Positions 1 through 36,228 of a stretch of DNA of 64,000 nucleotides are shown here, in pieces. Within the stretch, counting starts at the first letter, position 1. Each line of letters begins with the position of its first letter. A program made the translations under genes and the position numbers. The notes under the pieces were generated by a model. It made no database searches and was not told the DNA's origin. It saw nothing but the letters and a program-made list of their open reading frames with translations. The DNA comes from Candidatus Omnitrophota bacterium (GTDB lineage Bacteria; Omnitrophota; Gorgyraeia; Gygaellales; Profunditerraquicolaceae), in the NCBI GenBank assembly GCA_028712505.1, contig JAQTQC010000005.1:7051-71050 (forward strand), written 5' to 3'.

Positions 1-3000
1 GCGCCAAACTAACTAGTTACTATTCTTTTACCACTAAAAAGGCTACCGGGGAAGTTAGGGATCAGAATGCCCAGGTGGCTAAGAATACTATTGTAGCCGG
101 TTCCTTGACAAATCTGTCCGCGACTTCCAGTATAACCGAGGTAAGCGAGAGGATAGAATCCTCTCCGTATTTAACACTCAACTTTACATTGGCGCATCAG
201 CTTCCCATCGGAGGGTATGTCAAGATTAGCTTTGATACTGATTATGTATTCCCAACCGATACATTCTGCGTTACTAATGACTATAACTTGTATAGCGATG
301 ATTCAACCAAGATAATGTATCTGCAGAGAGTGAGTTCTCCTGTGGCAGTAGGGGCAACCAGTATACAACTGGCGAACATCAAGAATCCCGCTTATGTGCA
401 GACAACCGGCAATTTCTCAATAACAACCGAGCTTTCCAGCCATGATCCTATAGACACAGGTTCTGCCGGAGGCATTGGTATTGTTGCCGGTTCATTAACT
501 AACGCATCTGTGGCTCCGGTTTCTGATATTGTTAGCGAATTTACAAGTTATACGGTTAATTTTACCAATGACCATATGATAGCTGCAGGGTCTAAAGTAG
601 CTATTACTTTTGATGCTGATTACGGATTTAAGTTATTAGGTAGGTATGCTTGTGTAGCTTCTTTGGCAGACAGCTCGCTTACACTTATGGATATATCTAA
701 TCCTGCTAGCCCCGTGCTTAAGTCTGAAATTTCTGATGAAGCAGGAGGATTTAACAAGCTTGCAGGAGCAAAGTCGGTTTATGTTTCAGGAAGCTATCTC
801 TATGCAGCTTCATCAATAGATAACTCTTTAACCATCATCGATATCTCGAATCCAGCTAGCCCGGTGCTTAAATCCGAGATTTACGATGAAACAGCGGGAT
901 TTACCAAGCTGGCTGGAGCTCAATCCGTATTTGTCTTGGGCAATTATGCCTATGTTGCTTCTTCAACAGATAATGCTTTAACCATCATCGATATCTCGAA
1001 TCCAGCCAGCCCGGTGCTTAAGGCTGAGATTACCGACGGTTCGGGAGGCTTTACTAAATTAGCCGGAGCAAAATCCGTATTTGTCTCGGGCAATTATGCC
1101 TATGTTGCTTCTTCAACAGATAATGCTTTAACCATCATCGATATCTCGAATCCAGCCAGCCCGGTGCTTAAGGCTGAGATTACCGACGGTTCGGGAGGCT
1201 TTACTAAATTAGCCGGAGCAAAATCCGTATTTGTCTTGGGCAATTATGCCTATGTTGCTTCTTCAACAGATAATGCTTTAACCATCATCGATATCTCGAA
1301 TCCAGCCAGCCCGGTGCTTAAGGCTGAGGTATATGATGGGGATGGGGAGTTTAATAGGCTGGCGGGGATTGAGTCTGTTTATGTCTCGGGCAATTATGCC
1401 TATATTACTTCTTCGACTGATAATTCCTTGACAATCATGGATATCTCGGATCCTGCTAACCCGGTGCTTAAATCCGAGGTATATGATGGGGATGGGGAGT
1501 TTAATAGGCTGGCGGGAGCTTATTCAGTTTACGTTTCCGGAAATTACGCCTTTGTTGTATCTTCTGCAGACAGTTCTTTGACAATAATAGACGTAACAAA
1601 TCCGATGAATCCTGCGCTTAAGTCTGAGGCGTATAATGAAGACGGGCAGTTCAATAAGCTAGGCGCGCCGTTTGCAGTTTTTGTATACGGAAATCAGGTT
1701 GTTCCCGGTAATGCGGGCGCGACTGTTGCTGCCAGCGGCAGCGTATTGAACGTTACCTTAGGTTCTCCTATAGGTGCTAATGAAGCTGTTTCTTTGCAAT
1801 TAGATAATATAAGAAATCCCTATTATGTCCAAACTCCGGATGTCTTCCAGGTGCAGACTAAGAATTCCGCCGGAGGGGTGGTAGATCAGAATCTTTCTGT
1901 AGCATCTGTTCCTGTTACAAAAGGAGCCTTTACCGGGTTAAGCGTTACTGCCGCGGATAGGGAAATCAGTAAGTCTGACAATTACACCTTTACGCTTACC
2001 TATAGTCATCCGGTTCCGAAAGACGGATATCTAAAGATTGAATTTGATTCAGATTATGATTTAAGTTCTGCGTACTTGGTCAGCCCCACTGATAGGTATA
2101 CTTATCTGTGGAGTTCAGGATGGAACTATATAGAACTTAAATTGAAAGAAGGAATCATCGCTGATACCTCTGATACTATTGTTTTAGGTTCGGTGAAGAA
2201 TCCAAGTTTTGTCCAGCAGACCAGCGAGCATCGGTTTACAACATTGAGTACTGATGCCACGGGCAATGCTGTTATCGACCAATCCAATCTTACCGGTTTG
2301 ATCATTATCGGTGGAAAACTTACCGGTGTCTCTGTCAGTGCTGCTAATAATATTGTTACCGAGACTACAAATTACACAATCAACCTGACGACGAAAAACC
2401 CGATGTCTCTTAATCCTTCAATTAAAGTCTCGTTTGATCCGGATTATAACGTATCGGGAGCTGCTTTTGTTTCCGGAACAGTTGACGGAGTGGCAATGGT
2501 TACGCAGAATCCGGCGCTTACTATTGATACTAATAATAATGTAGTAACGCTTAATCTGGCTATGGATATCACTAATTCTACAGCCGCGGTATCTTTCGTT
2601 CTCTCGGGTATTGTTAATCCCGGCTATGAGCAGACAGCGGCGTTTGATATAACCACTCAGTATGGCGGTAACGATATTGATATTACTGATCCGGCTGCTA
2701 AACCTTCAGTAGCAATAGCCGCAGGCACAATAACTTCTGCCAGCGTCACTCCTGCGACAACAGAGGTAAGCGAATCCGGAAATTATGTTTTTAATTTTAC
2801 GTTGCCGCATGCTTTAGCTACAGGAAGTTTCTTAAGGATACAATTCGATCCGGATTATGTTTTAACCAATACGAATTGTCAGACCAGCGGTTACTCTTTA
2901 TCAAAAGGTTTAGATTACATCCTTTTGCAAAGGACGGGTGCGCAGTTAACCGGCGCTCAAAGCCTTACCTTGGGTAATGTGAAGAATCCCAGCTTTGTCC

Positions 3001-6000
3001 AGACCACGAGTAACTTTATTATAAAGACAGAAGATTCGGGGAACAATAAGATTGATGGAGCGGAAGTTTCCGGGGTAACTACGACTACTGGTGCATTGAC
3101 CGGTCTTTCGTTAACCCCGCTTGACTATACTGTGGCCAATACCACTGCTTATAACATAGCCTTTACTACGGATCATGCCATAGTCCAGAATGGCAAAATT
3201 GAGGTAACCTTTGATTCAGACTATGCATTAACCGGAGTCGGTAGCGCAGATGTTTCCGGAAATCCCGGTTCAACTGTCGCGGTAAGCGGAAATAAGCTGA
3301 CTATAACTTTGGGTACTGCGATAGCAGCGGCAACTCCTGTGTCTTTGCAGGTAGCTAACATTGTAAATCCGGTGTATGTGAAGACTACCAATAGTTTTGC
3401 TTTCAGGACTATGGATGCTGCTGCCGGCCTGTTGGATCAGGGTACGGCTTCAGGCGTGACTACAGTAGCCGGTACGTTTACTGCCTCCAGCGTAACTTCT
3501 ACATATTACACTACGGGTAAAACCGATGTCTCATATACCTTTAACTTCACTTATGCGCATAACGTACCTCTGGATGGATTTTTGAGGATAGATTTTGATC
3601 CGGATTATGATGTAGCTTCGGTTGCGGTAGCACATGCCAATTACACAAAACAGGAGGCAGGTGCAAATTATGTAATATTAAAACTGCTTGCGGCTAAACC
3701 AAAAGGTACTGTGGAGTCGATAACGTTAAGTAATATTAAGAATCCCGGTTATGCTCAAACCGTAACTTTCGATATCAAGAGTATGAATACAACCGGTTCA
3801 GTTATCGATACTGTTACTACCCCGTCAATCAACATTGTTCCTGCTGCTTTGACTGCGCTTAGCAGGTCATCTAATACGTATATCGCAACCGAGTCGGCCA
3901 GTTATACAATAGGTTTTACTACGGTTAACGCGATTCCTGCAGGAGGCAAGGTTGAAATTACATTTGATCCCGATTATGTTTTGACTTCTGTAGCCAGTGG
4001 TAATGTTTCGGGAAACAGCGGCTCAACTGTTGCAGTAAGTGGCAACACTTTAATTGTGACTTTGGGAACAAATATCCCGGCTTTGACTGCCTCCAGCCTA
4101 GTCATCTCTAATATCAAGAACCCGGGTGCACAGAGTACGGGAAGCTTCTCTTTGTTGACCAAGAATGTTTCCGGATACAGTATTGATCAGGGTACTGTAT
4201 CAGGAGTGACTATTATTACCGGCTCTTTGAGCGGACTTTCTACTGTCCCTGTTCATACCAAGGTAAGCTATAGTACGAACTACACTTTTGGTTTTACTGT
4301 TGCCCATTCCGTTCCTGTGGGCGGATTTATCAAGATACAATTTGATAGTGAGTATGATCTTTCTTCAGCTTTTGTCGTAGGAGACTATACGATATCCAAA
4401 GTGGATAATTATATATATCTACAAAGAAATGTTTCTGCTTTAAGCGGAGCGGTTACAGTAGAACTGAGGAGCATTAAAAATCCTGCTTATGTCCAGAGTA
4501 CCGATACATTTGTTATAACTACAGAGTTATCCAATCATGATCCCATAGATGTAGGGAGTGCGCCTAGCATAGTTACGACCGCAGGTACTTTAACCGCTAC
4601 AAGCGTTGCGCCGGCGACAACCGTGGTGGCAGAGAATACTGCTTATACATTAAATTTCACTACTGAACATGCGATAGCGGTTGGTGGCAAGGTGGAAATT
4701 ACCTTTGATCCTGATTGTGATCTTTCATTGGTTTTCCCGGGAGATGTTTCGGGAAACAGCGACTCAACAGTAGCGGTTTCAGGCAATAAGTTGATTGTCA
4801 CCCTGGGAGAAGCTTTGGATGCGGGAGTCTCGGAAACATTGGTAATTTCCAATATTAAGAATCCTCCGTATGTAAAAGAGACAAATACCTTCTTTGTACA
4901 AACTAAAAATCCTTCCGGAGGGGTTATCGATGAGGTGACTGCTGCCAGTATAACTACTTCTACAGGAGTTTTGGGCTCTCCTGTTATCACTCCGGCTTCC
5001 CTGGTTTCCGGAGCAACAACATCTTATTCGTTTAAATTTACCCCTGCGCATGCAGTTCCTCTTAACGGCTACCTGAGGATTGATTTTGATTCTAGCTATG
5101 ATTTGGCTAGTCCCGGAGCAGTAGTTATGAGCAGCACAACTGCTTGCGACATCACTCTAAGAGGTGCCGGATACCTTTTAATCAAGTTCTCGTCTTCCGG
5201 TTTAAGCGCCGGAGTGGAACAGACGGTGGGGATAGCCAATGTGGTGAACCCGCCAAATGTTAAGAGCCTGGAGTTTACCCTTACGACCAAAGATGCTTCT
5301 TTATATGATATTGATACTGTGAAAATCTCAGGTATTAGTACTACAGCCGGAAGTTTAAGCAGCTCGTCTTTGACCGCGAACACTTATGTCGTTTCAGAAT
5401 ATGCTACTTATACAGCTGTTTTCACTACAGCTAACCCGATAGCTGTCGGAGGCAAGGTTGAAATAAATTTTGATACTGACTATGTCTTGTCGAGCGTAGA
5501 ATCAACAGGGGTTTCCGGTAATCCCGGCTCAACAGTAGCGGTAAGCGGAAGTAAGCTGGTGGTGGCTATCGGTACAGCCATTGCTAAGAATACCCCGGTT
5601 TCTTTAGCCATAGCCAATATCAAGAACCCTGTTTATGTCCAGGCCACGGATTCATTCTTAATTCAGACTAAGACTGTGGATGATGCGATCATCGATACAG
5701 CGACAGCAACATCTATAAATATAACCGCTGGAGCATTAAGCGGTTTGTCGGTAAGCGCTACATCAAAGAAAATCTCAGATATTACCTCTTATACGTTTAA
5801 TTTTACAGCCCAACATGTTATTCCCGCTGATGGCTTTATAAGAATTCAATTTGACAGTAATTATTTATTGGGTAGTGCTTATCTCGATACAGCCAGCTTT
5901 TATAGCTTGGACAGGGGTAGTGATTACCTGAGGTTTAAGACAGTCGCCCAGATAAATGCCGGACAGGCAGTGAGTATTCCTATAAGCACGATTGCTAACC

Positions 6001-9000
6001 CGTCCTACGTATATACCGTAAGTAACTTCCAGGTAAAGACAATGATTGCAGTTGCGGCAACCCAGCAGATAATGGATTCAGGAGAAATTACAGGTGTTAC
6101 CCTGACTCCTGGCACCTTGTCAGATATTTCCGTAACTGCCGCTTCTGCGGAAGTAAGTGCTTTAACGAATTATACATTTGCATTCAAGACAGAAAACAGT
6201 ATTGCTGCCGGTACTGGTAAGGTGGCAATCAGCCTTGATAGCGATTATGATTTAAGCGCCGTAGAGTCAAATAACGTTTCAGGTAATTCCGGAGCTACGG
6301 TAAGCGTAAGCGGTAATACCCTGAGTATAACTTTAGGTACTGCAATTGCCGCCAAGGAATCTGTTTCCTTGACGGTTTCTAATATCAAGAATCCTTCTTA
6401 TGTACAAACTACAGGTAGTGTAACAATCAGCAGTAAAGTTCAAATAAATTCCGTAGATTATGATAAGGACGGCGGAATCCTTGCTTCAGGCCCGGCAATA
6501 ACTTCAGGAGATTTTACTAATGTATCAATAAGCGCTACTTCTCAGATAGCCGGTGAAGATTCAATTTATACCTTTGGATTTACCCCGGGGCATAATGTGT
6601 CCGCAGGAGGGTTTATCTATATTGGTTTTGAAACGGGTTATGATGTATCCGGGGCTTATCTCACTGGCTCAACCGGTTCAGGCGAATATGCTGTTGCCAG
6701 TTTAACTTCTACTCAGGTAGTTTTGAATGTCACGGCGGCGATAGCTAAAGGGGAGGCCCAGACTATCAGCCTAGGCGGCGTAGTCAACCCGCAATTTGTC
6801 AAGGATGTGATTTGTACGCTTAAGAGTGCTAATGCGTCTTCCGGAATAATCGATGAAAGCGATACGCCATCATTAAGCATAACACCTGCTCCATTGGCTG
6901 TTTTATCTATAAGCGGCGCTTCTTATGTCGCCCAGGATGTTACTTCCTATACGATCGCTTTTACAACTGTTAACCCGATTGATCAAAATGGAGAGGTAGA
7001 AGTTGAGTTTGATGCAGATTATGATTTAAGCGCTGTTCAACCAGGTAATGTCACAGGAAATAGCGGTTCAAGCGTATCCGTAAGCGGTTCTAAACTGATT
7101 ATTAATTTGGGTACTGCGGTTGCTTCAGGAGAGCAGGTTTCATTGGTAGTTTCCAATATCAAGAACCCCGGCGTGCAGACAACCGGTAGTTTTAATCTCG
7201 TAACCAGAAATTCCAGTGGCAATTACCTGGATTACGGTGGGGTTGCCGGAACGGCTATCACCGCTGGTTCACTATCCGGACTTTCAGCAACTCCAGGGAC
7301 TACTGAAATCGACGAAAGCACAAGTTATACATTCAATCTTACGCTTGGCCATAGCGTACCTACCAATGGTTATGTAAGGGTTCAATTTGACAATAACTAT
7401 GTCCTGACCAATGCGACGGTAGTTACCAGCGGTTATTCTTTGACTAAAGGTACTAATTATGTTTTGTTGAAGAGGACCGGTTCGGCGCTCTCTGGTGCGA
7501 TTTCCATCCAATTAAATAGCATAATTAATCCTTCTTATGTGTCCAACACTTTAGCCGGTTTTGCCATTCAGACGCAGCTGTCCAATAACCAGGTTATTGA
7601 TACAGGTACGGCAGGAGCGATCACTACAACCGCAGGTGCCTTGTCTGCTGTAACAGCCGTGCCGGCATCCTTGGGAGTAAGTACTCTTACAAGTTATACC
7701 TTTAACTTTACTACAGACCATGCTATACCCTCCGGCGGTAAGGTTCTTATAACTTTTGATTCCGACTATAATTTAACTTCTGTCCAGGAAGGCAATGTCT
7801 CAGGTGTTGCTGATTCAGTTGTTGCAGTTTCCGGCAATGTGCTCACTGTGACTTTAGGCCAGGCTATTGCCGCAAAAACCTCTGCTTCACTGGTTATTTC
7901 CAATATCAGAAATCCGTCTTACGTCCAGACTACAAACAATTTTGCTTTAGAGAGCAGAAACAGCTCTAATGCCTTGATTGACCAGGGTACAGCTGGCGGA
8001 GTGACTACTGTTACCGGTATTGTCACGATTTCTTCAATCACAGCTTCTACTTATGTTGCCGGTAGTACTAATGCTCAATATACCTTTAATTTTGCGCCGA
8101 CCAATGCGGTTGCCGCCGGCGGATATCTAAGGGTAGATTTTGATGTTACTGATAGCGCGTATAATGCTTCCAGCGCTATTGTTTCAGCAGGCGGCTCTAC
8201 CTTTGTTATCCCGCAGGGAGGGGCTAATAAGAATTATGTCAACCTGACTTTTACTCAGAACGTAGATGCAGGAAGCCCGCTTTCTTTGCAGCTTTCAGGT
8301 ATAGTCAATCCTGTTTACGCCAAGAATGTAACTTTCCGGTTGACTACTAATATCTCAACGGGAGAAAAAATAGATACGTCTGATTATGGTCCGGTAGTAA
8401 TCACTCCGGCTCCTTTGGTCGGGACATCTTTAATAATGGGCAGTACTACAGCTCTGGATATCAGTAGACATACATTTAGTTTCACTACTGTCAACGCTAT
8501 TGACGTTGGAGGTAAGGTTGAGATAACTTTTGATTCCGATTATGTGTTGACCGGGGTAGGCTCGGGTAATGTCTCCGGAAATTCCGGCTCAACTGTTGCA
8601 GTAAGCGGCAGCAAGCTTATTGTGACTTTGGGCACAGCGGTTTCTTCTGCAAGCGAAGTTGTCTTAGCCATCGATAATATCAAGAATCCTGGCGCGCAGA
8701 CAACAGATGCTTATGCTATTGTAACTAAGAATTCCGGAGGTTATCAACTGGATCAAGGTAGTGTTGCAGGTAAAACAATTACCGCTGGCGTTTTGACAGT
8801 TTTATCTGCTGACGCCACTACTTATGAGGTGGCTGAAAGCGCAAATTATACAATTAATTTTACGTTGGCGCATAATATACCGATAAATGGTTATGTAAGG
8901 GTGCAGTTTGATGATAACTATACTCTGACCAATGCGACGGTAGCGACCAGCGGGTATGCCTTGACTGGAACCGGAAGTAATTATCTTTTGCTCCGGACGG

Positions 9001-12000
9001 GTTCCGAACGTTCTGGTGCGATTTCCATCCAATTAAATAGCATAATTAATCCTTCTTATGTGTCCAACACTTTAGCCGGTTTTGCCATTCAGACGCAGCT
9101 GTCCAATAACCAGGTTATTGATACAGGTACGGCAGGAGCGATCACTACAACCGCAGGTGCCTTGTCTGCTGTAACAGCCGTGCCGGCATCCTTGGGAGTA
9201 AGTACTCTTACAAGTTATACCTTTAACTTTACTACAGACCATGCTATACCCTCCGGCGGTAAGGTTCTTATAACTTTTGATTCCGACTATAATTTAACTT
9301 CTGTCCAGGAAGGCAATGTCTCAGGTGTTGCTGATTCAGTTGTTGCAGTTTCCGGCAATGTGCTCACTGTGACTTTAGGCCAGGCTATTGCCGCAAAAAC
9401 CTCTGCTTCACTGGTTATTTCCAATATCAGAAATCCGTCTTACGTCCAGACTACAAACAATTTTGCTTTAGAGAGCAGAAACAGCTCTAATGCCTTGATT
9501 GACCAGGGTACAGCTGGCGGAGTGACTACAACCGCTGGCACCTTAACCAGCGTATCCGGAGCTGCCGTTAACTATGCTGCAGGAGCCGAGACACAGTATA
9601 CCTTTAATTTCATGCCTGCCAATGATGTTGTAACAGGAGGCTATGTAAAGATTGAGTTTAATTCTGAATACAATATTACCGGTGCATATCTGATCAGCCC
9701 TTCAGCTAAGTACAGTATTTCTACTAAAACAAATAATATTATTGTACTGAATGTGCTTGCTGATGCATTAGCTTCTAGCTCCCAGAGCATAAGCATCGGC
9801 GGTATAGTTAACCCGGGCCGTGAGAAAACAGGCATTAAATTTACAGTAACCACGCTTACCTCTAATAGTGCCAATATCGATACTGCTCAATCAGCGGCTA
9901 TAAATATAACCGCAGGTGTATTGACTTCGAGCTCCGCCACAGCCAGCACCTATACAACTTATGATTTAGCGTCTTATACATTTAATTTTACTACTGCCAA
10001 TGCCTTGGATGTGGGCGGTAAGGTCGAGATAACTTTTGATGCGGATTATGATGTGTCGGCAGCGGTATTTACTTACGGGAATGATAATTCTACACTTTCA
10101 GTATCTGGACGGGTGGTTACTATCACCTTGGGCACAGCGATAGCCAAGCAGGAAAGCGTAACTCTGACTATATCTGAAATCCGTAACCCGGGAGTCCAAT
10201 CTACAGACAGCTATGCGATAGTTACTAAGGATTCCAGCGCGACAAGAGTAGATACTGGTACGATCTCCGGTAAGGTAATTACCGGAGGCGGAATGAGCGC
10301 TACTTCCGTGACTGCCGGTTCAACTCAGCCGGCTGTTACTACAAATTATACATTTGCCTTTACACCTGACCATATAATTCCTACCGGTGGATATATCAGG
10401 GTTACTTTTGATTCGGATTATGTCTTAGACTATGTTTCTGTGCAGACAGCAGGTTATGCCGCCAGCACCGGACCGGGATACGTGCTTTTAACTAATACCA
10501 GCGGAGGTAATCTGTCTGGTGCGCGCAGTATAGTATTGCTCAATGTCAAGAATCCTGCTTCTGTTAAGGAGCCGACAGGTAATTTCTACATTACAACTAT
10601 GACATCGAATCAGGATACTATAGATACTGCTACTCTTACCGGCATCACTATGACTCCTAGCCCGATAACAGTTTCATCTATTTCAACGGTTTCAGCCGAA
10701 GTCTCGGCGCTTACTTCTTATACCGTCAAGATTACTCCGATACATACTATCCCGATAGGCGGCAAGGTCTTGATCACCTTCGATAGTGATTATAACTTGT
10801 CAAATATCGGTTCCGGAGATGTGTTAGGTAATAGTTCTACTGCCTCTGTAAGCGGTAATATCTTGAGCGTTACCCTGGGCGAGATGGCTTCTCAGGGGAA
10901 TGTGCTTACTTTGGTAATCTCGGATGTGCAGAATCCGTCATATGTGCAGACAACCGGCGTATTCTCAGTAGTGACTAAGGATGCCTCGGGGTATAAATTG
11001 GATTCCGGAGATATAGCTGGTATTTCCATAACTGAAGGCCAGTTGACCAATCTCTCGGCAACTCCGGCAAATACTACTTTGGATACCATAACTAGTTATT
11101 TATTCCAGTTTACTCCGGAGCATACCATACCCTTAAACGGTTATGTCAAGATAACCTTTGATTCTGATTTTGATTTAACCGGTGCTTATAGCGGAACTGG
11201 CAGCTATTCTATTGTCTCTTTGGAGAGCGGTTATATCTTGCTTAAAGCTTTAGCTGAGAAGTCCACTGCTCAAAGCCTGCAGATCCTGAATGTTAAGAAC
11301 CCGTCATATGTCCAGACTACAGACGCTTTTTCAATTACTACACAGGATGCCAACCAAAAGAATATAGACGTGGGTAATGCCTCCGGTATTACTACTACAG
11401 CAGGTGTCCTTTCCGCAGGTTCAGTTAGCCAGACTTCCACGCAGGCAGGTACTACTACGAGTTATACCTTTAACTTTACTACGATCCATGCAGTTGCCGC
11501 CGGAGGCAAGGTTGAAATAACCTTTGATTCGGATTATATCCTGACTTCCGTAACCGCTTATAATGTCTCCGGGATCGCCAATTCCACGGTCGCGGTAAGC
11601 GGAAATAAACTAATCGTTACTACGGGAACAGCAGTTTCCGCCGGGGCTCAAGTTGCGTTGACAATCAGCAATATCAAGAATCCGGCTTATGTGCAGACAA
11701 CTTCCGCTTTTGCAATAGATACTAAGAATGTTTCCGGAGGCTTGTTGGATAGCGGGACCATTCCTGGCATAAACATTACCGCTGGTTCGTTATCGTCGGT
11801 TTCAGCTACGCCGGTTTCTACCGAGGCAGCCAAAAGCACGGATTACACGTTTAACTTTACCACTGAACATAGTTTACCCGCAGATGGGTATGTGCAGATA
11901 GAGTTTGATCCAGCTTATGATTTATCTACTTCTGTAGTCTTGACATCGGGATATGCATTGGTAACCCGGGGCAGCAATTACCTGAAGTTGCAGACTTCTG

Positions 12001-15000
12001 AGATAAGGAGTGGTTCTATCAGTATAGTGTTGAGGAACATAGTCAATCCTCCTTATGTGGCAACGAGTTCAGCCTTTACCGTAATCACGCAGACATCCAC
12101 AGGGGATACCGTTGATATGGGTACTTGCAGCGGTATCACGACTACGCCTGCTGCTTTAACCAGCGCATCTGCGAGCGCTGCTTTGACTGAGGTCAGCAGC
12201 CAGGGTGACTACACCTTTATTGTTACTCCTCAGCATGATATACCTATAGGAGGCAGGATCAGGATAACCTTTGATAATGATTATACTCTCACTAATGTAG
12301 TTTCAGGTAATGTTGCCTGCAGCGGAGGTAATGCCACAGTATCAGTTAGCTCCAAGACCTTAATTATAACATTAGGCTATGAGTTGGTCGGCGGAACAGA
12401 AGAGAGTATAGTTATATCTAATATCAAGAATCCGTCTTTTGCGCAAACCACAAATAATTTTACTATAGTAACAAGGGATGATCAGGACAGGACGATCGAT
12501 CAGGGCGCAGCCAGCGGTGTGGTTATAACTGCCGGGGCGTTGACCGCGATATCTGTAACCGCTGATTCCCTTGTGGCAGGTTATACTTCAGTTTATACCT
12601 TTAACTTTACTCCTGCTCATGCCGTTAATTCCGGAGGTTATGTTGTAATAGATTTTGATTCTGCTTATAATGCGGCATCAGGTTATGTGGTTAGCCCTTT
12701 GAGCACATTCAGCTTATCTTCCAGGTCAGCCAATAGAATAACCCTTAGTGCATTAGAAACTTTGCCGGCTGCTACGGCCCAAAGTGTTACCATCGGCAGT
12801 ATAGTCAACCCGGGTTCCGTAAAACAGGTTACCTTTACTATTAGTACTCAGAATTCTACCCAGAATAATATAGATACGGCTGTTTCTCCGGCTATCAGTA
12901 CACAGGCAGCTCCGATGACGGCTGTTTCGGTAAACGCTGTAAGCAAGATTGCTTTAGACTCGACCTCATACACCTTTGTTTTTACTACCGTCAACTCAAT
13001 AGAGGCCGGAGGTAAGATCGAATTTACCTTTGATTCTGAATATGACCTTACGCAGGCCACATATGCTTCTGGTCTGATCGGTGGCTCAACTGCATTGGGA
13101 GCGACATTGGCTGTAAGCGGCAGTAAATTGATTTTGACTACTACTACCGCAATCAGTACGCAAGCAGGGGTTTCAGTGGTTTTTGCAAATATCAAGAACC
13201 CGGGTGTGCAGACAGTAGATAATTTTGCTATTCTTACGAGAAACTTAAACAATAATGAACTTGATCAGGGTACTGCAACAGGTGTTGCTATAACCGCAGG
13301 TTCCTTGACCGGTTTATCAGTGACTGCCGGTTCAACCGAGATAGGCGCCACTTCAACTTATAGTTTTGGTTTTACAGTAGCTCATACTGTGCCGGTGAAC
13401 GGATATGTGAAGATATCTTTTGATAGCGATTATTCATTCGCCAACGCCAATGTCTTAAGCGAGGCTTATGTAATAACCGATAAACAAAGCAACTTTATCC
13501 TCTTAAGAAGGAGCGCGCAGCTTATCGGGGCAAACACCCTGCAGTTAGGTAATATAGTAAATCCGTCTTATGTTCAGGCTACTGACCCCTTTGTTATTAC
13601 CACCCAGCTTAGTGATAATAAAATAATAGATACAGGAACTACACTGAGCGTAAATATTACTCCTGGTTCCCTGACCCAGTTGTCTGCAAGTGCGGTTAAT
13701 CCGTTAATCAGCGCAGTAAGTTCTTATAGTTTTAGTTTCAAGACTACTCATGCCGTAGAAGCTGGCGGCAAGGTAGTAATTACATTTGATGATGATTACG
13801 ATTTGAGCCTGGTTTCTATAGGTTCTCAGGATATTTCAGGCAGCGGTACTCCAGCGATTGAGTCAAAAGAAGGCAAGAAGCTGAATATCGTTCTTTCTAC
13901 AGGTGTATCAGCTTCTGCGACTGTTTCTTTAAGTATCTCTAATATTACGAACCCCAGATATGTGCAGACTACGTCCTCTTTTGTATTCCAGACTAGAACT
14001 GTTTCAGGAGCAGCTATAGATGAAGGATTGTCCGGCGGCATAACAACTACTGCCGGTACATTAACCGGTATTAATATAGCTTCAGGTAGTGCGATAGCAG
14101 GTGCCAGGACAGATTATACCTTTACTTTTACTCCTGCCCACAGCGTAGAGGCTAATGGTTATTTGAGGATTGACCTGAACTCTCAGTATAATGCAGGCAT
14201 ATCTTATGTGATGAGCCCTACAGCGCTATTTGAAATATCTGATAAAGCTGCTAACTATATTACAGTTAAGGCCCTGTCCGCATTGACCGCTGGGACATCT
14301 TATTCTGTAAGGTTGGGTAATATTGATAACCCCGGGCGTTCAATGGACGTTACATTTACTTTGACTACCAAGACTGCTTCCAGCGCTAATATAGATACAG
14401 GTATTAGTTCAAGCATGCATATCACGCCTGCTCCGATGCAGTCAGCATCCATTTCTTCAAGCAGCTTGATTGCTACGGAGACAGCTACTTATACCTTGAA
14501 TTTTGTGCCGGTAAATACAATAGATGATGGCGGTAGGGTTGAAATTACCTTTGATTCTGATTATGTGCTTACCGGAGTAAATAGTGTTACTGGTTTTGAT
14601 GCCAGCATAGCGGTTTCTGGCAGTGTCCTGATTATTACTTTGAATACCCAGCTGGAAGCAGGGGAAGCCTGTTCTTTTATCATCCCGAATATCAAGAATC
14701 CGGGAGCCCAGACTACCGATGCATTTTCTTTGGTTACTAAGGATTCTACCGGTACCTCTTTGGACGAGGGGACCATAGCCAGCAAGGTTATCCAGGCTGG
14801 CGCATTAGGCAGTCTTTCTGTTTCTGCTGATTCTTACGAGGTAATGGGTACAAGCGAGAGCGCTACCTATACTTTTAATTTTACCTGTGTCCATGCAATC
14901 CCTGCTAACGGCTACATCAGGATAGGTTTTGATACGGATTACTCTTTGGATAATGTAGTCAATTTAAGCTCCGGATATCTGATATCTTCTAAAGGGGCAG

Positions 15001-18000
15001 GATATCTGTTGATCAGGACTACTCAGGAACGCAGTGGAGCCTGTTCCATACAGCTAAGTGGAATAAGGAACCCTTCTTATGTGCAGACAACCGATAATTT
15101 CACAATCGCTACGCAATTAGCTACGCAGCAAAATATTGATACCGGAACTATCGGAGGTATTACTACTACGACCGGCTCTTTAACCGGACTTACGGTATCT
15201 ACGACTAATTCTAAGATTGCTGAATCAGCTGTCTATACTTTTAATTTTACAGCAGACCATGCTGTTGCAGTAGGGGGTAAGGTAGCTATAACCTTTGATG
15301 CTGATTATGACCTGACAGCGGTTACTTCTACCAGTGTTTCCGGTAATTCCGGTTCGACCGTATCGGTCAGCGGTCATGACCTGATAATTACCTTAGGCGA
15401 GCAGATCTTTGCTGCAGGTAACGTGTCTCTGGCTGTATCCAATATAGTTAATCCGGCATATGTCCAGACTTCGGATGCCTTTGTTATTAAGACCAAGAAT
15501 CCTGAAGACGGTTTAATCGATACTGGCAATGCATCCGGGGTGACGCTTGAACCTGGCGTATTGGGCAATGTAAACGTCAGTTCAAACGATTTGCAGGTTA
15601 ATGCCCAATCAATCTATACCTTTGTTTTTACTCCTGCGCATCCAATTCCTGCCAACGGGTATATTAAAATAGACTTGGATAATGACTATGATATAAGCGG
15701 GGCATATCTTTATCTGGTATCAGGCTATTCTTTTGAGAAAAATACGAGCGATGTGTATTTTACATTACAGGCAAATAGCGCTAAACCCGCAGGTACTCCT
15801 TTAACGATATCGATAGCCGGTATTATTAACCCGCCATACAGTCAGACCACGGATAGTTTTATGATTAATACCCAAGCAGCCAATCAAAGCGGTATTGATT
15901 CTGGCTTAGCCAACGGTGTGGAGATTACTGCCGGCCAGCTTTCAGGTGTTTCTGTGGTTTCTGCCGGAAATAACTATGTAGTTGGAAATCAGGTAAATTA
16001 CACTGTAGCCTTTACTACTGTTAATCCTATAGGAGTAGGAGGCCAGGTTAAAGTTACTTTTGACGCAGATTATGGTTTTGCTTTAAATGGCGCTGTATCG
16101 GGTAATGCGGGAGCTACAGCTGCGGTAAATGCGAACGTGGTTACTGTAACTTTAGGTACTGCGGTTGCGGCTAATCAGGCAGTCAGTTTGACCTTGGGCA
16201 CTTTTACTAACCCAGGATATGTGCAAAAAACAGATGAGTTTTTGATCAAGACATTTGATTCGGCGGGATACGCCCTGGATTCAGGCAAGACATTGGGCAA
16301 GGATATAACTACAGGCGCCCTTACCTCTTTAAGCGTAAATTCAAGTTCAGCCAGCGTGCTTAACGCAGATACAAAATTGACCTTTAGTTTTAATGCCCCG
16401 CATGTGATTCCGCTTGATGGTTTCATTAAAATTAACTTAGATAGTGATTATAGCGTGGTGTCGCCTTATATCAAGAGTTCCAGCGGAGCCAGCCTGACTT
16501 TGCTTACGGAGGCTGGAAGCCAGGCCGGATATCTTTTATTTAAACTAAATTCTGCGGCTTCCGGGGCAATAAGCGTGGAAGTCGGAGGTATTACCAATCC
16601 CTCTTATGAGCAGACTACCCAGAATTTTGTGATTACTACCATGTACACCGGAGAAGAAGGTATCGACACCGGTACTATTCCGGGCCTGGTAGTTAATTCC
16701 GGATCCTTGGTCATCAGTTCTGTGGCCTGTTTGGATAATTACGCCGGCGCCACCACGACATATACTGTTAATTTTGCCGCGGTTCATGCTATCGCGGTCA
16801 CGAGTAAGATCGAAATTGTTTTCGATAGTAATTATAATTTAGCCGGTGCCGAATTGAGCAGCCCATCCGGGAGTTTAACTGTTTCAGGAAGTACTTTGAG
16901 CATATCCTTAGAGGCAGAAGCAGCAGCTTCTTCCAATGTAAGTTTGAATATAGCCGGTATAGTCAATCCGGGTTATTCTCAGACAACTGATAACTTCAAG
17001 GTTACAATTAAGGATGTTGGTGGGAATACCGTAGATAAGGGTGAAGGTTCGGGTATTGCTATATTGCCGGCTAGGATAGAGTTTATCACTCCTGCTGCCG
17101 GAGATATTTATTCTGTCGGAGACAGCAAGATCATTAAATGGCAGGTGACCGGAGGTGATATCTCCCGGACCAGCAGCCATTGGTCAGTGCAGTTTGCCTC
17201 GGATACTAATTTCACTTCGCCGATAACCGTACATGAAGGCCTGGCAAGTGTTGATGCAAATAGTAACCTGTATTTTACGTTATCCGTGGATGTGAGTATG
17301 CTTTCAGAGAATGCTTATCTGCGGGTGACTTGTATCGATAATTCATATACGGATGTTACGACAACTTCCGGAAGATTCAGCATAAGGCCGGTTGCCGGGT
17401 TCATAGGCTATATTTCTCCGGCGTCTTCATCCGCGAAATGGGCTATTGGAAGCAGCAGTACGATAGAATGGTCTACGCAAGGGGCGACGAGCAATAATTT
17501 TAAGATTGAATATTTTGCCAAGAATATCTGGACAACTATTTATGAAGAAGGGGTTACTGGTTCAGCGCTGGTTATCAAGAGTGCCGGAGACCATTGGTAT
17601 GAGGATAAGTGGTCCTATAGTTGGGCCATACCTGAAGCAGCTAACTTGCCCGATACCGGCGTGCAGGTCAGGGTTACTAATATAGATAATAATATAATTA
17701 CCGGCACTACCGAGGCCTTCGAGATAGCTACTGCTTATATAGAAATCACCAGCCCGGCAGAAGGGTCTACTTGGGTAAGGAATGAAACTAATAATATCAC
17801 TTGGGAAGGGCAGGGTGAGTCGGGTACTAATTTCAGCATTCAGTATGTTGATTCAACCAATGCGGTTACCGTAGATATCTATAGCGGGACAATAGAAAGA
17901 ACGCTTTCCGAGGGTAAATGGCTGTACAGTTATTCCTGGTTGGTAGGCATAGACCTTGAACCTACGGACACGGCAGTAATAACGATAACTAACCTGGATA

Positions 18001-21000
18001 ACAACAAAATCGTTGATACTTCTTCTGTATTTAGCGTTAATGCCAGCGGTAAGCTGGAGATAACCGCTCCAGTAGAAGGCGGCAGATGGGTTGCCGGAGC
18101 CAGATATACGATAAAATGGAATTCCGAGGGACAGGCGCTCAGTTCATCTTCTTTAAGGATAACCTATACTGCGGATGGTATCAGCGAAACCTTGATCACC
18201 AACTCTACTTCCAATACCGGAAGCAAGGATTTTACCTGCCCATCGACTACGTTAAATAATGTAAAGATTCGTCTTCGTCAGATAAACGGGGATGTTACTG
18301 CTGAGTCCGGAGCTTTCAATATCGTGGCTGTTCCTTCTCTCCAGTTTGTCTCTCCGGCTGCCAACGACAACTGGGTTGCCTCATTCACCAAGGAGATAAA
18401 ATGGAGCGGAGTTGGGGAAGGGCTTACCAAGGACCTGGTGATCAAATACTCAACCGACGGCGGCTCAACCTACGCTAATACAATTTTTAACTATACCACC
18501 GATTCTTTTGATGAAAAGATTTCAGCCGTAACTACAGGTACAGTTACCAATTATACATTATCATGGGTTGTGCCAGTTAATTACAGCAGCAATGTGAAGA
18601 TAAAGATCGAAGATATGGGGATAATGCGTCTAGTTAGCGGAAGTTATACTCCTTTAAGTCTGGTCAGCGGTAAATTCTCCATAACTGCCCCTCTGGCGAC
18701 TATTGTCCAGCCAGCAGGAGGAGAAGAGTGGATATCCGGTACCGAGCATGATATCATCTGGTCGGAAACAGGTTCTTTGGGTAAAGATATCAAGATAAGT
18801 TATTCTGTTGACGGTGGCGCAACCTACCCTTATGTTATTTTCCAGAATTCTTCCGGCGATTCCACGGTGTATGCTAATTATATAACTGTTGCGGATAATT
18901 TATTCAGCTATAAATGGGTGGTTCCGAATACTATTTCCGCCCAATGCCGTATCAAGGTAGAGGGTCTGTCAAATAGCGGAAACGGAACTTCCCTGGCTAA
19001 TTTCTCGATCAAGCTGCCATCTATTACGATAACGTCTCCTGTAGCTACAGATTTGTGGGCAATCTATGATAGCTCTCGGATAATCACTTGGAATACCGTT
19101 GGTAATGTCAGCGAGCATTTAAAGATAGAATATTTCAAAGATGAATCTACTTCCAAGGTCATATTGGAGGATACTAATGGTCCGATGACTTCTTATAGCT
19201 GGGATGTAACCGAGGATTTCATAGATTATGTTTCGCCAAGCGGCTGGATAAAGATTACGGATTTAAATTCTGAGTCTACCTTTGCTCAGAAGGTTACTGC
19301 TGTATCGGAGCAGTTTGAATTGTCTCTGCCAGGATTTGATATCGATGTCCCGGCGGTTCCCTTGATCACGGGAAGTTCTTATACTATAACCTGGCAGGGT
19401 GTTGGTGCTTATTCTGCTTGCAGCAGCGAATCGGGTAATACTGTACGTTTAGAGTATGGCGTCGGGGATAATCCTACCTGGGTTACTATTGCCACATCTA
19501 CGCAGAATGATGGTTCATATGAAAACTGGACGGTACCCGACAGGCATTCCAGCGATGTCAAATTCAGGATCACGAATAACAGGTATTCCTTTATTTCTAC
19601 TGTCTCCAGCGCCTTCAAGATCATGGGGTCATTCTCGGTTACCAGCCCAGCTGCCGCAACCAAGCTTTTTGTGGGCAAGGAACAGATGATCGAATGGAGC
19701 ACTAACGGTACGATTAATAAAGTAAATCTTTATTATTCGAAGAATGGCGGCTCAACCTGGACTACCCTGGCTTCTAACACTACTAATAACGGATTCTATG
19801 TCTGGATAATACCCGACGCGGTACTCATCGACCGTTCGCCTAATCCGAACATCTATTTCAAGATAGAAGACGCTACCGATGCAGCAGTTTATGCCAGCAG
19901 GCAGCTTACGATAAGTTATTATAAGGTTACTTGGAATGTTATCGATGCCGATGGCTTGGTAGGTGATTTGGACGGCTTAAGCGTAAATACCCTTGATGTT
20001 AGCAATGATAACGCGGTATGGGAAGATAGGACAGGTTTGAGCTGTTCTGCTTCCATCCGGAACGCTGGTATTGATGCCGATGATATAGTGCTCTATTATT
20101 ACCCCGGCCATCTTTATCAGACTACCTGGTCAAGAGACGCTTATCTGGATGCTACTGTCCAGCCTTCGCCGTGGACAGCAGATGCCGACGGTAAAGAATT
20201 TACCGTAACCTTGGCTACTATGCTGGTGACGAAAACAAGGACTGTGTATTCTTCTGTGACATATGATGCTTCGGCAGATACCTTAAGTATACAGTGTTGG
20301 CTGCAGGAAGAGGAAAAGTTATTGACTGAGATAGCCGGGTTGCAGGGGGCACTGGTAATTATTTATGATGATGAGGATAACGAGATTAAGACTTTTGAAT
20401 ACACGGCTGCGCAAGCAGATGCCAGCGGTGTCTTCTGGACAAAATGGGTTAATCCCGGCTTGCAAAGAAATAAGTCTTATTTTGCCCGTTTTAGGATCCA
20501 GTTCGAAGGAGCATTCCATTACGGCGGTAAGACATTTGAGATAAGTTCAGCTTCACAGATCGACGATATTGCCGAATCGGTAAGTGCCGGAGTCGTTGCT
20601 ATCACATCGGCAATTGCCGAAAGCTCTCAGGAGATAAAAGAAAAAATAGAAGAGACAGCAACCGAGACGCAAACTAAGGTGGCTCAGGCTGTCAGTACAG
20701 CTCAGGCATCGATAGAGGGCACGGTTACGGTTATCGGTGAGGAAAATAAGGCTGCGATCGGTAGCGCTTCAGCGGCGATAAGAGAAAAAGTCGGGAAAGA
20801 ATCCTCCAGCCGTATATTAAACGGAGAGGCTTTTATTAAATCAGGGAATAAATTAAAGATTCGCTATCAGACTGATTCCAAGTTAGCTCCGGAAATAGAT
20901 GTATATGATCCTAAAAATATTCAGCGTATAACTAAAGGCGTAATGACAGAGGTTGGAGATACGGGTGTTTATGAATATGAGGTCAATTTCTTGAGTGGCT

Positions 21001-22349: not shown

Positions 22350-23126
22350 ATGATGAAATCCTGGGTTAGCTGGGTGTTATTGAGTTTATTCTTATTGTAT
22401 CCTTTAGAGGCTCCTGGCGCAGATGTTTCCTGGAATAATGTAGAAAAAAGCAAACATTTCCTTATTTATTTTCAGGATGCTCCTGCTGAATATATCAACC
22501 GCCTGGTGCGGGAGGCAGAACGCTCTTACAAGAATATTACCGAGTACCTGGGTTTTGTGAGGTTTGATTTCTGGATCTGGGATAACCGCTGTAAGATTTT
22601 CCTCTATCCCGACGCCGATACCTATCTGAAAACTACCGGAGTTATCGGCTGGTCAAGAGGGCATGTCCAGGTAGTAACAAAAGAGATCAGTACTTATATC
22701 TGGCAGGAAATGTTTTTTGATACGATTCTTCCTCATGAGATCGGGCATATCATCTTCAGGGAATTTGTCGGCTACAGCAAGGTGTTACCTCTCTGGCTTG
22801 ATGAGGGGGTGGCTTGCATGCAGGAGTATGAGAGCAATGAGCGTTTGGCCACCGCTAAATGCCTGGTGAACTTGAAATTATACACGCATTTGGATGATTT
22901 ATCCAAGATTCAGGATTCCGGGGTTATTATACCTTTTATTTTTTATAATGAATCTGCCAGCCTGGTGGATTTTCTCCTGAGGAGATATGGCAGGGGTAAA
23001 TTTGTTGATTTCTGTCGTTCTCTGCGTGATGAGCCTGATTGGAAACAGTCTCTCAGAGGTGTCTATAGATTAAAGAATCTGGATGAACTGGAAAGAAACT
23101 GGGTTATGGACTTAACTGAAAATTAA
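22350..23126 (+). CDS. secreted zinc metallopeptidase, peptidase-MA-like (HEIGH ... WLDEG)
   Basis: N-terminal signal-like segment MMKSWVSWVLLSLFLLYPLEAPGA. HExxH motif HEIGHIIF followed by WLDEGVA, as in Peptidase_MA_2 family proteins. Confidence 0.55.
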   Translation: MMKSWVSWVLLSLFLLYPLEAPGADVSWNNVEKSKHFLIYFQDAPAEYINRLVREAERSYKNITEYLGFVRFDFWIWDNRCKIFLYPDADTYLKTTGVIGWSRGHVQVVTKEISTYIWQEMFFDTILPHEIGHIIFREFVGYSKVLPLWLDEGVACMQEYESNERLATAKCLVNLKLYTHLDDLSKIQDSGVIIPFIFYNESASLVDFLLRRYGRGKFVDFCRSLRDEPDWKQSLRGVYRLKNLDELERNWVMDLTEN

Positions 23127-23144
23127 AGTTGGAGGATTGAATTA

Positions 23145-30748: not shown

Positions 30749-30752
30749 GCAG

Positions 30753-30992: not shown

Positions 30993-30993
30993 T

Positions 30994-32226: not shown

Positions 32227-32241
32227 TTAAGGGGGATTCAA

Positions 32242-33707: not shown

Positions 33708-33714
33708 GGTATTT

Positions 33715-36226: not shown

Positions 36227-36228
36227 AT

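Follow-up and report, generated by a model that had tools for sequence, protein, structure and literature searches.

The rod of SasG and Aap in staphylococci is formed by G5 modules that alternate with E modules; the G5-E repeats of SasG, a periscope protein, are nearly identical to one another and variable in number. Titin, which is intracellular and eukaryotic, is organized in 7- and 11-domain super-repeats of Ig and Fn3 domains, two unrelated folds. RTX or type I secreted giant adhesins (LapA, SiiE, MpIBP type) carry C-terminal RTX nonapeptide repeats and a secretion signal. Fibrillar adhesins are described as a stalk of tandem domains joined to an adhesive domain and an anchor (Monzon et al., 10.1101/2020.12.07.414375 / PMC8286594; PMC9210967). 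The B-region of SasG/Aap is a rod-like repetitive region, and what defines periscope proteins is a high identity of neighbouring repeats together with a repeat number that varies between strains (PMC8201768). Two reports on giant proteins of Omnitrophota distinguish Archaeovorins, Dockerin-type proteins and "tandem-repeat scaffolds" (10.1101/2023.11.21.568195; 10.64898/2026.06.07.730766). In the first of them, an adhesion role is proposed for the giant proteins, and their genes are placed near type II secretion-like loci (10.1101/2023.11.21.568195); Archaeovorins are credited there with numerous TM helices and a SecA-DEAD-like domain (West-Roberts et al. 2023, 10.1101/2023.11.21.568195).

In this study, we characterized a giant gene lying at the beginning of the window, that is, of the whole 64,000-nucleotide stretch of DNA that was analysed. 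On the plus strand, frame 3 holds one open reading frame from nt 3 to a stop codon at nt 22167-22169 (7,388 codons). Its start codon is absent from the window, and it opens with 23 residues that belong to the end of a module. In the ortholog L017, the reading frame continues without interruption for 10 kb upstream of the position that corresponds to the window start, which amounts to at least 3,333 further codons. The gene is longer than 30 kb, and the window codons plus the upstream codons of the orthologs predict a full-length protein of more than 10,700 aa. Thr, Ser, Ala, Val and Gly are abundant in the protein, and charged residues and cysteine are scarce. We consider it probable that its module array (Table 1) is the stalk of a giant, membrane-anchored, fibrillar-adhesin-like surface fibre of an Omnitrophota-type bacterium. 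From the membrane outwards, such a fibre would comprise ~700 aa of non-repetitive sequence, nine small Ig-like domains, 47 beta-sandwich modules and a most distal part, known from orthologs, with DUF2341, concanavalin/LamG-like and many Kre9/KNH-like Ig domains. Pfam profiles identified DUF2341, Laminin_G_3 and Kre9_KNH domains in the N-terminal part (2,729 aa) of L017.

Table 1. Features of the giant gene and its downstream neighbours (coordinates in nucleotides of the window).
Feature	Coordinates	Strand	Basis or remark
Giant ORF	1..22169	+	Frame 3; 5' end cut by the window edge
C-terminal tail of another A-type module, begun upstream of the window	3..71	+	SYYSFTTKKATGEVRDQ fits the last strand and the junction
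42-module tandem array, strict B-A-B-A	72..17039	+	Self-HMM coordinates, flavour HMMs, A/B homology
Seven LVIVD repeats, 50 aa each, inside M02	648..1691	+	PF08309, E 1.9e-76, 7 stretches; 150-nt DNA period
Super-repeat zone B2-A2-B1-A1, M07-M40, ~505 aa (~1.52 kb)	3438..16280	+	Lag profile; DNA repeat spacings 1497-1521 nt; sub-flavour positions
Conversion tract copy 1, end of M17 and M18	7314..8008	+	93.7% identical to copy 2 over 701 nt
Conversion tract copy 2, end of M21 and M22	8835..9529	+	Paired with copy 1
Nine small Ig-like domains, ~95 aa each, weakly Kre9/KNH-like	17091..19922	+	Self-HMM, aa 5697-6640; weak PF10342 match
Non-repetitive C-terminal region, ~700 aa	19923..22019	+	Weak apolipoprotein-type matches only
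Hydrophobic segment (aa about 7340-7366) and 22-aa lysine-rich tail	22020..22166	+	Only 19-residue window with Kyte-Doolittle mean >2
Peptidase_MA_2-like gene (sub-threshold match) and response-regulator diguanylate cyclase (REC-GGDEF)	22350..24059	+	Conserved downstream pair

An iterated HMM search of the protein against itself delimited 42 contiguous modules, M01-M42 (aa 24-5679), with a mean length of 126 aa (range 121-139) and per-module E-values of 1e-14 to 1e-47. This agrees with the sequence-only reading, which had proposed about 42 modules at nt 1700-17070. The end of that interval holds to within 30 nt. Its start does not, as position 1700 is where M02 resumes after a 348-aa insertion, and the array runs upstream past the window edge. 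In L017, five modules (aAABA) precede the M01 equivalent, bringing the predicted count for the whole gene to 47, 42 of them in the window. Odd modules are of flavour B (GY[VIL][RK]I.FD) and even modules of flavour A (GGKVEITFD...VSGNSGSTVAVSGNKL.VTLG), two consensus sequences that accommodate the motifs quoted for them beforehand. The strict alternation that had been noticed between the flavours is clear. Flavour-specific HMMs read BABAB...A with a margin of 34-108 bits for each complete module, and the two halves of the split module M02 scored +13 and +37 bits. Mean identity is 42% between A modules, 36% between B modules and 30% between A and B. None of 2,000 order shuffles was as extreme in the parity statistic as the observed order, and the chance probability of perfect alternation of 21+21 items is about 4e-12. 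Moreover, the HMM-HMM comparison of A with B gave a full-length match (hhalign probability 99.9%, E 2.6e-32), which indicates that the two flavours are homologous. Neighbouring modules are 21-41% identical in protein, and DNA identity between module copies is ~60-77%. The locus resembles SasG/Aap in its strict two-type alternation along a rod with no flexible linker. Unlike in SasG/Aap, the modules are all distinct, their number is fixed at 47, and both flavours are full-size homologous sandwiches.

The sequence-only reading had also taken a pair of modules, of about 290 aa, as the unit of duplication. The pair measures ~252 aa (756 nt), and a period of four modules is better supported. Identity between modules reaches 44% at lag 4 and 42% at lags 8 and 12, versus 38% at lags 2, 6 and 10. 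In addition, the sub-flavours B2 and A2 are confined to positions 3 and 0 mod 4 (p = 2e-4 and 4e-3), and long off-diagonal self-alignments are spaced at multiples of ~507 aa. Altogether, these data indicate that the block of four modules B2-A2-B1-A1 is the last recognisable duplication unit; a few positions of the super-repeat zone are degenerate (M12, M27, M28). Comparison of the modules suggests that the split into A and B predates the four-module duplication. The array would have grown by duplication of the four-module block, followed by a freeze of module number and order. Titin shares with this array a higher-order periodicity of sub-types on a giant rod, a closer resemblance of equivalent positions than of neighbours, and a conserved number as a ruler. 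The array differs from titin in being bacterial and in using one fold with two (four) flavours.

AlphaFold returned confident, all-beta models for two modules (pLDDT 95.5, pTM 0.82) and confident models for four (pLDDT 91.5, pTM 0.74), in which each module is a seven-stranded Ig/cohesin-like sandwich and the mutual orientation of the modules is confidently predicted. These models support the chain of beta-sandwich domains envisaged from the sequence, and a rod is its probable shape. NP.YVQTT, formerly regarded as the module boundary, falls in a loop before the last main strand, ~20 residues ahead of the ID.G junction. In the two-module model, strand 121-127 crosses the junction at 124/125. Conserved columns sit in loops at strand ends, and the non-core motifs H..P..G, FD.DY, NP.YVQTT and ID.G occupy the two poles of the domain. 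Based on the junction-crossing strand and the conserved polar loops, we propose that neighbours pack via conserved interfaces into a stiff rod. The confidence values of the models point to rigidity, and the rod would be roughly 0.2 micrometre long. Matches in the PDB are generic (Ig/cohesin-like sandwiches, pilins, MSCRAMM adhesins and integrin legs), all at no more than 17% identity. A docking platform similar to cellulosome scaffoldins and their dockerin enzymes, with A and B modules each recruiting their own class of partner in 1:1 alternation, seems unlikely. The cohesin family is absent from Pfam matches at E up to 1 for the protein or 0.01 per module, the 64-kb window, only a part of the genome, contains no dockerin gene, and neither dockerin nor TSP3 repeats gave a Pfam match in the window protein or the ortholog N-terminal part.

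Pfam scans found no family that accounts for the module, and thus none that explains both flavours. DUF2808 (PF10989) is the sole model touching the modules, with partial, sub-threshold matches in 5 of 40 (best single E 2.3e-4, below the gathering score, over positions about 77-117) that cover profile positions about 77-119 of 146. A four-module segment reached 28.0 bits (cut-off 25.3) with the same partial coverage. The alignment falls on VSGN..L.VTLG...ISNIKNP of the A-type, and the one matching module identified is of this type. The module family comprises 2,866 cluster representatives, and many of these belong to proteins of 2,000-6,700 aa; other members show no periodicity or a period of 3 or 4. 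From these profile searches, it appears to be a new, so far undescribed beta-sandwich stalk domain.

Further domains are inserted within stalk modules. In M02 (nt 459-647 and 1692-1895), an insertion of LVIVD repeats, a type that builds beta-propellers, lies between the FDADY motif and the VxGNxG strand, and is flanked by module HMM positions 2-62 and 66-124. A stalk module of the ortholog L012 carries a DUF2341-like and PA14-like insert, assigned by eye. Such inserts are likely binding domains. As in fibrillar adhesins, a stalk of tandem domains is present (42 modules in the window, 47 via orthologs, with confident multi-module models). Candidates for the adhesive domain are the LVIVD block in the window, Laminin_G_3 and DUF2341 at the ortholog N-terminus, and the PA14-like insert of L012. 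The protein also resembles fibrillar adhesins in being a very long, extracellular-type protein with an Ig-like sandwich stalk, lectin and propeller candidates and a predicted membrane anchor at one end. In contrast, none of the described stalk families includes its stalk domain. Its predicted anchor is a C-terminal TM helix, where other fibrillar adhesins use sortase signals, outer-membrane plugs or type I secretion signals, and its candidate binding domains, for which adhesion is putative, also lie inside stalk modules.

The orthologs L005, L008 and L004 come from different species, not strains, and are 78.9, 74.8 and 74.1% identical to the window protein, and their alignments to it stay collinear for as much as 6,798 aa, interrupted by ~8 gap positions. 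Per-module identity is 56-87% between orthologous modules versus 30-42% between paralogous ones. Synonymous sites are saturated, and dN/dS is about 0.1. The ABAB order occurs in 13 of 13 related loci. Organism labels are a mixture, mostly Omnitrophota, with some Planctomycetales and one Patescibacteria, a point against the reading proposed here. Within the module family, the alternation is peculiar to one ortholog group, mainly of Omnitrophota MAGs. A recently expanding repeat was ruled out by the module-for-module orthology between species. Collinear orthologs also refute the reading of the array as an assembly artefact or non-functional repeat, which is hardly credible. It is true that most related contigs break inside the gene, revealing a difficulty for the assembler, and that a 480-nt tract is exactly duplicated. 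However, independent assemblies agree on the order and number of modules, module DNA is too divergent for collapse, the copies of the duplicated tract in other genomes range from 92 to 100% identity and so do not always match exactly, and the low dN/dS with saturated synonymous sites argues against a non-functional repeat.

The duplicated tract has a core of ~480 nt at 100% identity between its copies. Within L005, L008 and L004, this module pair is likewise 91-97% identical in DNA, although orthologous M18 modules share only ~71% protein identity. The pattern shows that this one pair, M17-M18 with M21-M22, undergoes gene conversion within each genome. The pair could also aid unequal recombination, as would be needed by a periscope stalk, in which recombination alters the repeat number and hence the projection of the tip. 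The tandem array in a surface-type protein would suit such a stalk, and LVIVD repeats number seven or six among orthologs. Nevertheless, this reading is very improbable and is already contradicted by the data. Neighbouring modules and module DNA are too divergent for highly identical adjacent repeats, and the array is collinear and almost indel-free between genomes differing by 21-26% in protein. The constancy of number was seen across species rather than among strains. On the basis of collinearity and purifying selection, we propose that the stalk is a fixed-length spacer and not an adjustable one.

At the other end of the protein, the small Ig-like domains are of a type that matches PF10342 with E 5.6e-18 in the N-terminal part of the ortholog. 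The non-repetitive region has six homologs, two of them labelled Candidatus Omnitrophica, and its charged segment, which gives the apolipoprotein-type matches, may be helical. We read the hydrophobic segment and basic tail as a C-terminal membrane anchor. RTX, LPXTG and PEP motifs are absent beside it, and GGxGxD is absent from the entire window protein. RTX adhesins differ at the C-terminus, which here is a predicted TM helix followed by a lysine-rich tail. A single C-terminal TM helix would sit in the cytoplasmic membrane, with the short basic tail inside the cell and all else outside the membrane. Neither an N-terminus nor a signal peptide was recovered, orthologs included, and export is predicted only from the topology of the anchor and from the kinds of domain present, which counts against the reading. 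Omnitrophota-type bacteria are thought to possess two membranes. An inner-membrane helix leaves unexplained how a rod of ~0.2 micrometre crosses or bypasses the outer one, which counts against the proposed topology.

This outer-membrane problem would favour an envelope or lattice component, either S-layer-like or a periplasm-spanning lattice or sheath, with the flavours providing alternating lateral contacts from one molecule to the next. The amino acid composition is that of many surface-layer proteins, and the distant relatives P0003-P0005 (3-6 modules, and hydrophobic N-terminal segments that look by eye like export signals) have the 700-800 aa typical of envelope proteins. Still, we regard a lattice as quite unlikely, slightly more so than a docking platform. 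A chain of >10,700 aa with 47 modules is far beyond known S-layer proteins, the inserted propeller and lectin-like domains suggest ligand binding, and a Pfam scan of the window protein found no SLH or other S-layer anchoring domain.

The surface fibre that we favour has much in common with the giant proteins of Omnitrophota, namely the phylum of most related loci, a gene of this size, extracellular adhesion-type domains, and nearby type II secretion-like and c-di-GMP genes. The downstream gene order is the same behind the orthologs on L015 and L016, and a type II secretion-like locus lies 7-15 kb downstream of the giant gene. A C-terminal TM region is likewise reported for Dockerin-type proteins. 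Unlike an Archaeovorin, the protein has one hydrophobic segment in 7,388 aa, and SecA had no match in the window protein or the 2,729 aa of the ortholog N-terminal part. The passages considered of the reports on Omnitrophota giants mention neither this dominant module nor an ABAB order (10.1101/2023.11.21.568195; 10.64898/2026.06.07.730766).

According to two studies, adjacent domains stay below ~50% identity, which avoids misfolding (10.1101/2020.12.07.414375; PMC8201768). Alternation would hold every pair of neighbours within the range that protects tandem domains from mutual misfolding, and would also yield two repeating heterotypic junctions, A-to-B and B-to-A. The misfolding argument fails to explain why there are two flavours rather than general divergence, a point that counts against it. 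A bolder proposal, which we put forward as speculative, is a fixed molecular ruler, a rigid rod of about 0.2 micrometre made of 47 modules in two alternating flavours (four sub-flavours), with its length and the identity of each module kept the same from one Omnitrophota species to the next. The ruler would set the distance from the tiny cell to its host or prey and would hold the spliced-in putative binding domains at defined heights. The stalk family (~2,900 cluster representatives) would then be new and widespread, and the A/B junctions a new rigid heterotypic interface, possibly metal-stabilised at the FD.DY / NP / ID.G poles.

The giant genes found in Omnitrophota pose a puzzle at present, as large parts of them are without annotation. 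The results of our study define a large domain family that had no Pfam model, and provide a clean natural example of how a long array is ordered, with two-flavour alternation, a four-module super-repeat and neighbours at no more than 41% identity. The AB pair would be a handy system for testing ideas on misfolding of neighbouring domains. Pathogens have periscope stalks of variable length; the present array is their opposite, in that the number and order of its modules stay frozen from one species to another. The gene-converted module pair offers an internal contrast to the remaining array. If the rod is a fixed-length spacer, these findings would be relevant to the way in which ultra-small bacteria that live as episymbionts or predators make contact with their partners.

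The frame-3 ORF of the window is already under way at the 5' edge, which offers no start codon context, and the first 23 residues look like the tail of a repeat module. Using a module profile seeded with a single module and iterated against the giant protein itself, we obtained 43 matches (E-values 1e-14 to 1e-47), corresponding to 42 modules, one of them split. These modules, M01 to M42, follow one another without gaps and measure 126 aa on average (range 121-139). The sequence-only reading had placed the array at 1700-17070. Its end falls within 30 nt of the one found here, but its start is actually the point where M02 resumes after an insertion. Over most of the array (nt 1-16000), the GC skew lies between -0.005 and 0.04, versus 0.11-0.23 in most of the remaining window, and this contrast (1-18000 versus 20000-64000) exists although the main genes are all on the same strand. 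The near-zero skew of the array is probably an effect of its Thr/Ser/Ala/Val-rich composition.

Coordinates of the giant gene, its parts and its neighbours in the window and at related loci
Sequence	Feature	Coordinates	Remark
Window	Open frame of the giant protein	from nt 3; stop 22167-22169	7,388 codons
Window	Module array	nt 72-17039	aa 24-5679
Window	M02, first part	aa 153-212	profile positions 2-62
Window	M02, second part	aa 570-628	profile positions 66-124
Window	LVIVD insertion in M02	648-1691	seven 50-aa repeats, PF08309, E 1.9e-76
Window	Similar DNA tracts, M17/18 and M21/22	7314-8008 / 8835-9529	93.7% identity over 701 nt
L005	Equivalent tracts	6011-6645 / 7526-8160	96.6% DNA identity
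L008	Equivalent tracts	6101-6615 / 7625-8139	94.1% DNA identity
Window	Hydrophobic segment	aa ~7340-7366	followed by 22-aa lysine-rich tail
Window	Peptidase_MA_2-like gene and REC-GGDEF diguanylate cyclase	22350-24059	peptidase: sub-threshold Pfam match
Window	Fused ATP synthase b-delta subunit	24445-25203	single 252-aa ORF, PF00430 + PF00213
Window	Type II secretion / type IV pilus-like cluster	29021-36762	7-15 kb downstream of giant gene
Window	Second GspE-type ATPase	61742-63397	window end
L009	Break in orthologous giant frame	7202-7254	two long ORFs overlap by ~50 nt
L017	N-terminal part	2-8188	>2,700 aa
L012	Insertion in one stalk module	aa ~1000-1330 of open frame	

Aligning the 42 modules with MAFFT, we recovered both motif patterns of the two flavours previously read from the DNA, namely GGKVEITFD.DY ... 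VSGNSGSTVAVSGNKL.VTLG ... SNIKNP in the even modules (flavour A) and GY[VIL][RK]I.FD in the odd ones (flavour B). Homology between the flavours extends across the whole module (hhalign probability 99.9%, E 2.6e-32), and mean identity is 42% among A modules, 36% among B modules and 30% between A and B. Flavour-specific HMMs assigned all modules in the order BABAB...A, with score differences of 34-108 bits at each complete module and of +13 and +37 for the halves of M02. Moreover, none of 2,000 order shuffles produced a parity statistic as high as the observed one, which bears out the strict alternation claimed earlier.

Identity along the array follows more than a plain period of two. It averages 30% at lags of 1, 3, 5 ... 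modules, 38% at lags of 2, 6 and 10, 44% at a lag of 4, and 42% at lags of 8 and 12. This pattern is explained by sub-flavours. Sub-flavour B2 (…NP…K.VTF.LTT, then ITPAP) occurs in M7, 11, 15, 19, 23, 31, 35 and 39, and A2 (NPG[AV]Q) in M8, 16, 20, 24, 32 and 36, each being confined to one residue class modulo 4 (p = 2e-4 and 4e-3, respectively). The observed period-4 statistic was reached in 0 of 2000 shuffles within parity classes. In addition, the DNA repeat family D10 shows spacings of 1497-1521 nt, and alignments of the window protein with its orthologs contain long off-diagonals at multiples of ~507 aa. Altogether, the lag profile, the modulo-4 sub-flavours, the D10 spacing and the off-diagonals argue that the last recognisable duplication unit comprises four modules, B2-A2-B1-A1, of ~505 aa. 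The sequence-only reading had taken a two-module pair of about 290 aa as this unit; the higher identity at lag 4 than at lag 2 favours four modules instead, and the pair measures ~252 aa.

A locus scan covering one genome per species, with a smaller A-module alignment as query, returned 13 loci, most of them in Candidatus Omnitrophota MAGs and a few labelled Planctomycetales or 'bacterium'. At all 13 the modules alternate strictly, and the frame runs open to one edge or more of the retrieved stretch, in most cases to both. Collinear alignments were obtained between the window protein and its orthologs at L005 (78.9% identity over 6,798 aa, with ~8 gap positions), L008 (74.8% over 6,798 aa), L004 (74.1% over 4,674 aa) and L002 (78.8% over 4,082 aa). 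Orthologous modules are 56-87% identical, versus 30-42% between paralogous modules, and dN/dS is ~0.1, with synonymous sites near saturation. Collinearity, module orthology and dN/dS point to an array that is old, functional and frozen in the number and order of its modules. A stalk of variable length is contradicted by these orthologs, in which module number and order are unchanged, and the same collinearity, together with the low dN/dS, contradicts an assembly artefact. In one MAG (L009), the orthologous giant frame is broken; a frameshift, an error in the sequencing or a genuine split may lie behind this.

M18 and M22 are identical in the window, and the DNA tracts at M17/18 and M21/22 share a 480-nt core of 100% identity. 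The equivalent DNA pair is also highly similar within other genomes, including L004 (90.8%), and at the protein level its two copies share 100% identity in L005 and 92% in L008. M18 of the window and M18 of L005 or L008 share ~71% protein identity. Since paralogs within a genome are more alike than orthologs between genomes, these comparisons indicate that gene conversion has acted repeatedly on this pair, four modules apart, as a single hotspot in an otherwise frozen array in four genomes. No conversion-like pattern was found elsewhere in the gene in any genome compared.

The insertion that splits M02 consists of LVIVD repeats, a repeat type that forms beta-propellers. One stalk module of another ortholog, L012, also carries an insertion, DUF2341-like and PA14-like by eye, and the two cases make the splicing of extra domains into stalk modules recurrent. 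LVIVD repeats 3-5 of M02 are nearly identical to one another. The LVIVD count differs between the window (seven) and its ortholog L017 (six), with the number of stalk modules unchanged.

Searching metagenome contigs for exact DNA matches to the window's first 42 nt gave none, so the upstream region was viewed through L017, a metagenomic ortholog with 79% identity. Its N-terminal part carries five DUF2341 domains, two Laminin_G_3 (concanavalin-like) domains and many Kre9/KNH-like Ig domains, and five further modules (aAABA) stand between these domains and the equivalent of M01. Together with the 42 modules of the window, they would make a full array of 47 modules in a protein of >10,700 aa, the upstream part being taken from L017, where the frame stays open for at least 3,333 codons ahead of the position that matches the window start.

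Behind the array, the window protein continues with nine Ig-like domains of ~95 aa, weakly Kre9/KNH-like, and a non-repetitive region of ~700 aa. It has a sole strongly hydrophobic segment, next to the lysine-rich tail. According to the positive-inside rule, the tail would be cytoplasmic and the other 7,300+ residues would lie outside the cytoplasmic membrane. A C-terminal signal of the sortase, PEP-CTERM or RTX type was rejected: the protein lacks an RTX motif, and neither an LPXTG nor a PEP motif occurs close to its end.

Downstream of the giant gene, the order Peptidase_MA_2-like gene, REC-GGDEF diguanylate cyclase and F-type ATP synthase is kept behind the orthologous genes at L015 and L016. 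These conserved neighbours hint that the fibre may be controlled or processed in a c-di-GMP-linked way. The fusion of ATP synthase b and delta/OSCP in one ORF is present at L015 and L016 too. The secretion cluster encodes a GspE/PilB-type ATPase, GspF, pseudopilins J and K, a PilM-PilN fusion and PilO, and no secretin gene was found among the window ORFs scanned. The remainder of the window holds ordinary bacterial housekeeping genes. In Omnitrophota, giant genes are reported to lie close to c-di-GMP genes and to loci resembling type II secretion systems (10.1101/2023.11.21.568195).

AlphaFold2 models were built for the B-A pair M17-M18 (pLDDT 95.5, pTM 0.82), from an alignment of the window's 20 pairs, and for the four modules M31-M34 (pLDDT 91.5, pTM 0.74). 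The predicted module is an all-beta domain with seven main strands. An extra strand (pair-model residues 121-127) crosses the module boundary at 124/125, and the models contain no low-confidence linker between modules. The high pTM of the four-domain chain means that mutual orientation is confidently predicted, which fits a stiff rod. Taking ~4 nm for each Ig-like domain, a stalk of 47 modules would reach a length of ~0.2 micrometre. Besides core hydrophobics, the columns conserved across modules are H..P..G, FD.DY, NP.YVQTT and ID.G, which lie in loops at strand ends. Given the up-and-down topology, the conserved loops would lie at both poles of the sandwich, where modules join, and NP.YVQTT, previously read as a module boundary, becomes the loop preceding the last main strand. 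The junctions may also hold a metal site. Foldseek returned generic matches only (integrin legs, MSCRAMM adhesins, a cohesin dyad) with TM-scores of at most 0.43, and a profile search of PDB sequences gave no match at E up to 1.

Could a known Pfam family explain both flavours, as the sequence-only reading had asked? On a four-module segment, Pfam gave only a partial match to DUF2808 (PF10989; 28.0 bits versus a cut-off of 25.3; profile positions 78-117 of 146). When modules were scanned one at a time, 5 of 40 matched it, all under threshold. NCBIfam offered no relevant model for the modules, and Pfam scans of the relatives gave nothing beyond the same partial match. No Pfam family thus accounts for the two flavours. 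Word-indexed protein searches yielded 4-6 relatives each, since members of so divergent a family do not share enough 5-mers, and an exhaustive module-profile search of 1.84 billion cluster representatives was therefore used. With an E-value limit of 1e-3 this search retrieved 2,866 proteins, and with one of 1e-30 it gave 202. Many are 2,000-6,700 aa long with up to 40 modules; hence, the domain family is large. As judged with the A and B profiles of the window, ABAB order is restricted to the nearest relatives (P0001, P0002, P0006 and partly P0010). Two giant proteins of the family have super-repeats of other kinds, with period 3 in P0019 (identity 51% versus 32%) and period 4 in P0009, and many other members show no periodicity. 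The modules represent a new stalk-domain family. In this giant protein, from a phylum in which giant genes had been described before, they combine a strict order of two flavours and four sub-flavours with a module count that is conserved.

The best-supported reading is that the array forms the stalk of a giant surface fibre of the fibrillar-adhesin type, held in the membrane by its C-terminus; rival readings are a scaffoldin-like docking platform and an envelope lattice. Such a surface fibre would bear lectin- and propeller-type domains both distally and inside its stalk. Unlike the described giant classes of Omnitrophota, the window protein is without many transmembrane helices, and Pfam scans of this protein and of the L017 N-terminal part revealed no SecA domain, dockerin or TSP3 repeats, which sets it outside those classes. 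Every neighbouring module pair is 21-41% identical. In large multidomain proteins, neighbour identities stay below ~50%, which is attributed to the avoidance of inter-domain misfolding (PMC8201768). Alternation keeps neighbours below this limit and also yields two repeating heterotypic junctions made of the conserved pole motifs. In this sense, the giant protein is the opposite of the 'periscope' proteins: its repeats are divergent and their number is fixed, which suggests that the stalk may serve as a spacer of defined length.
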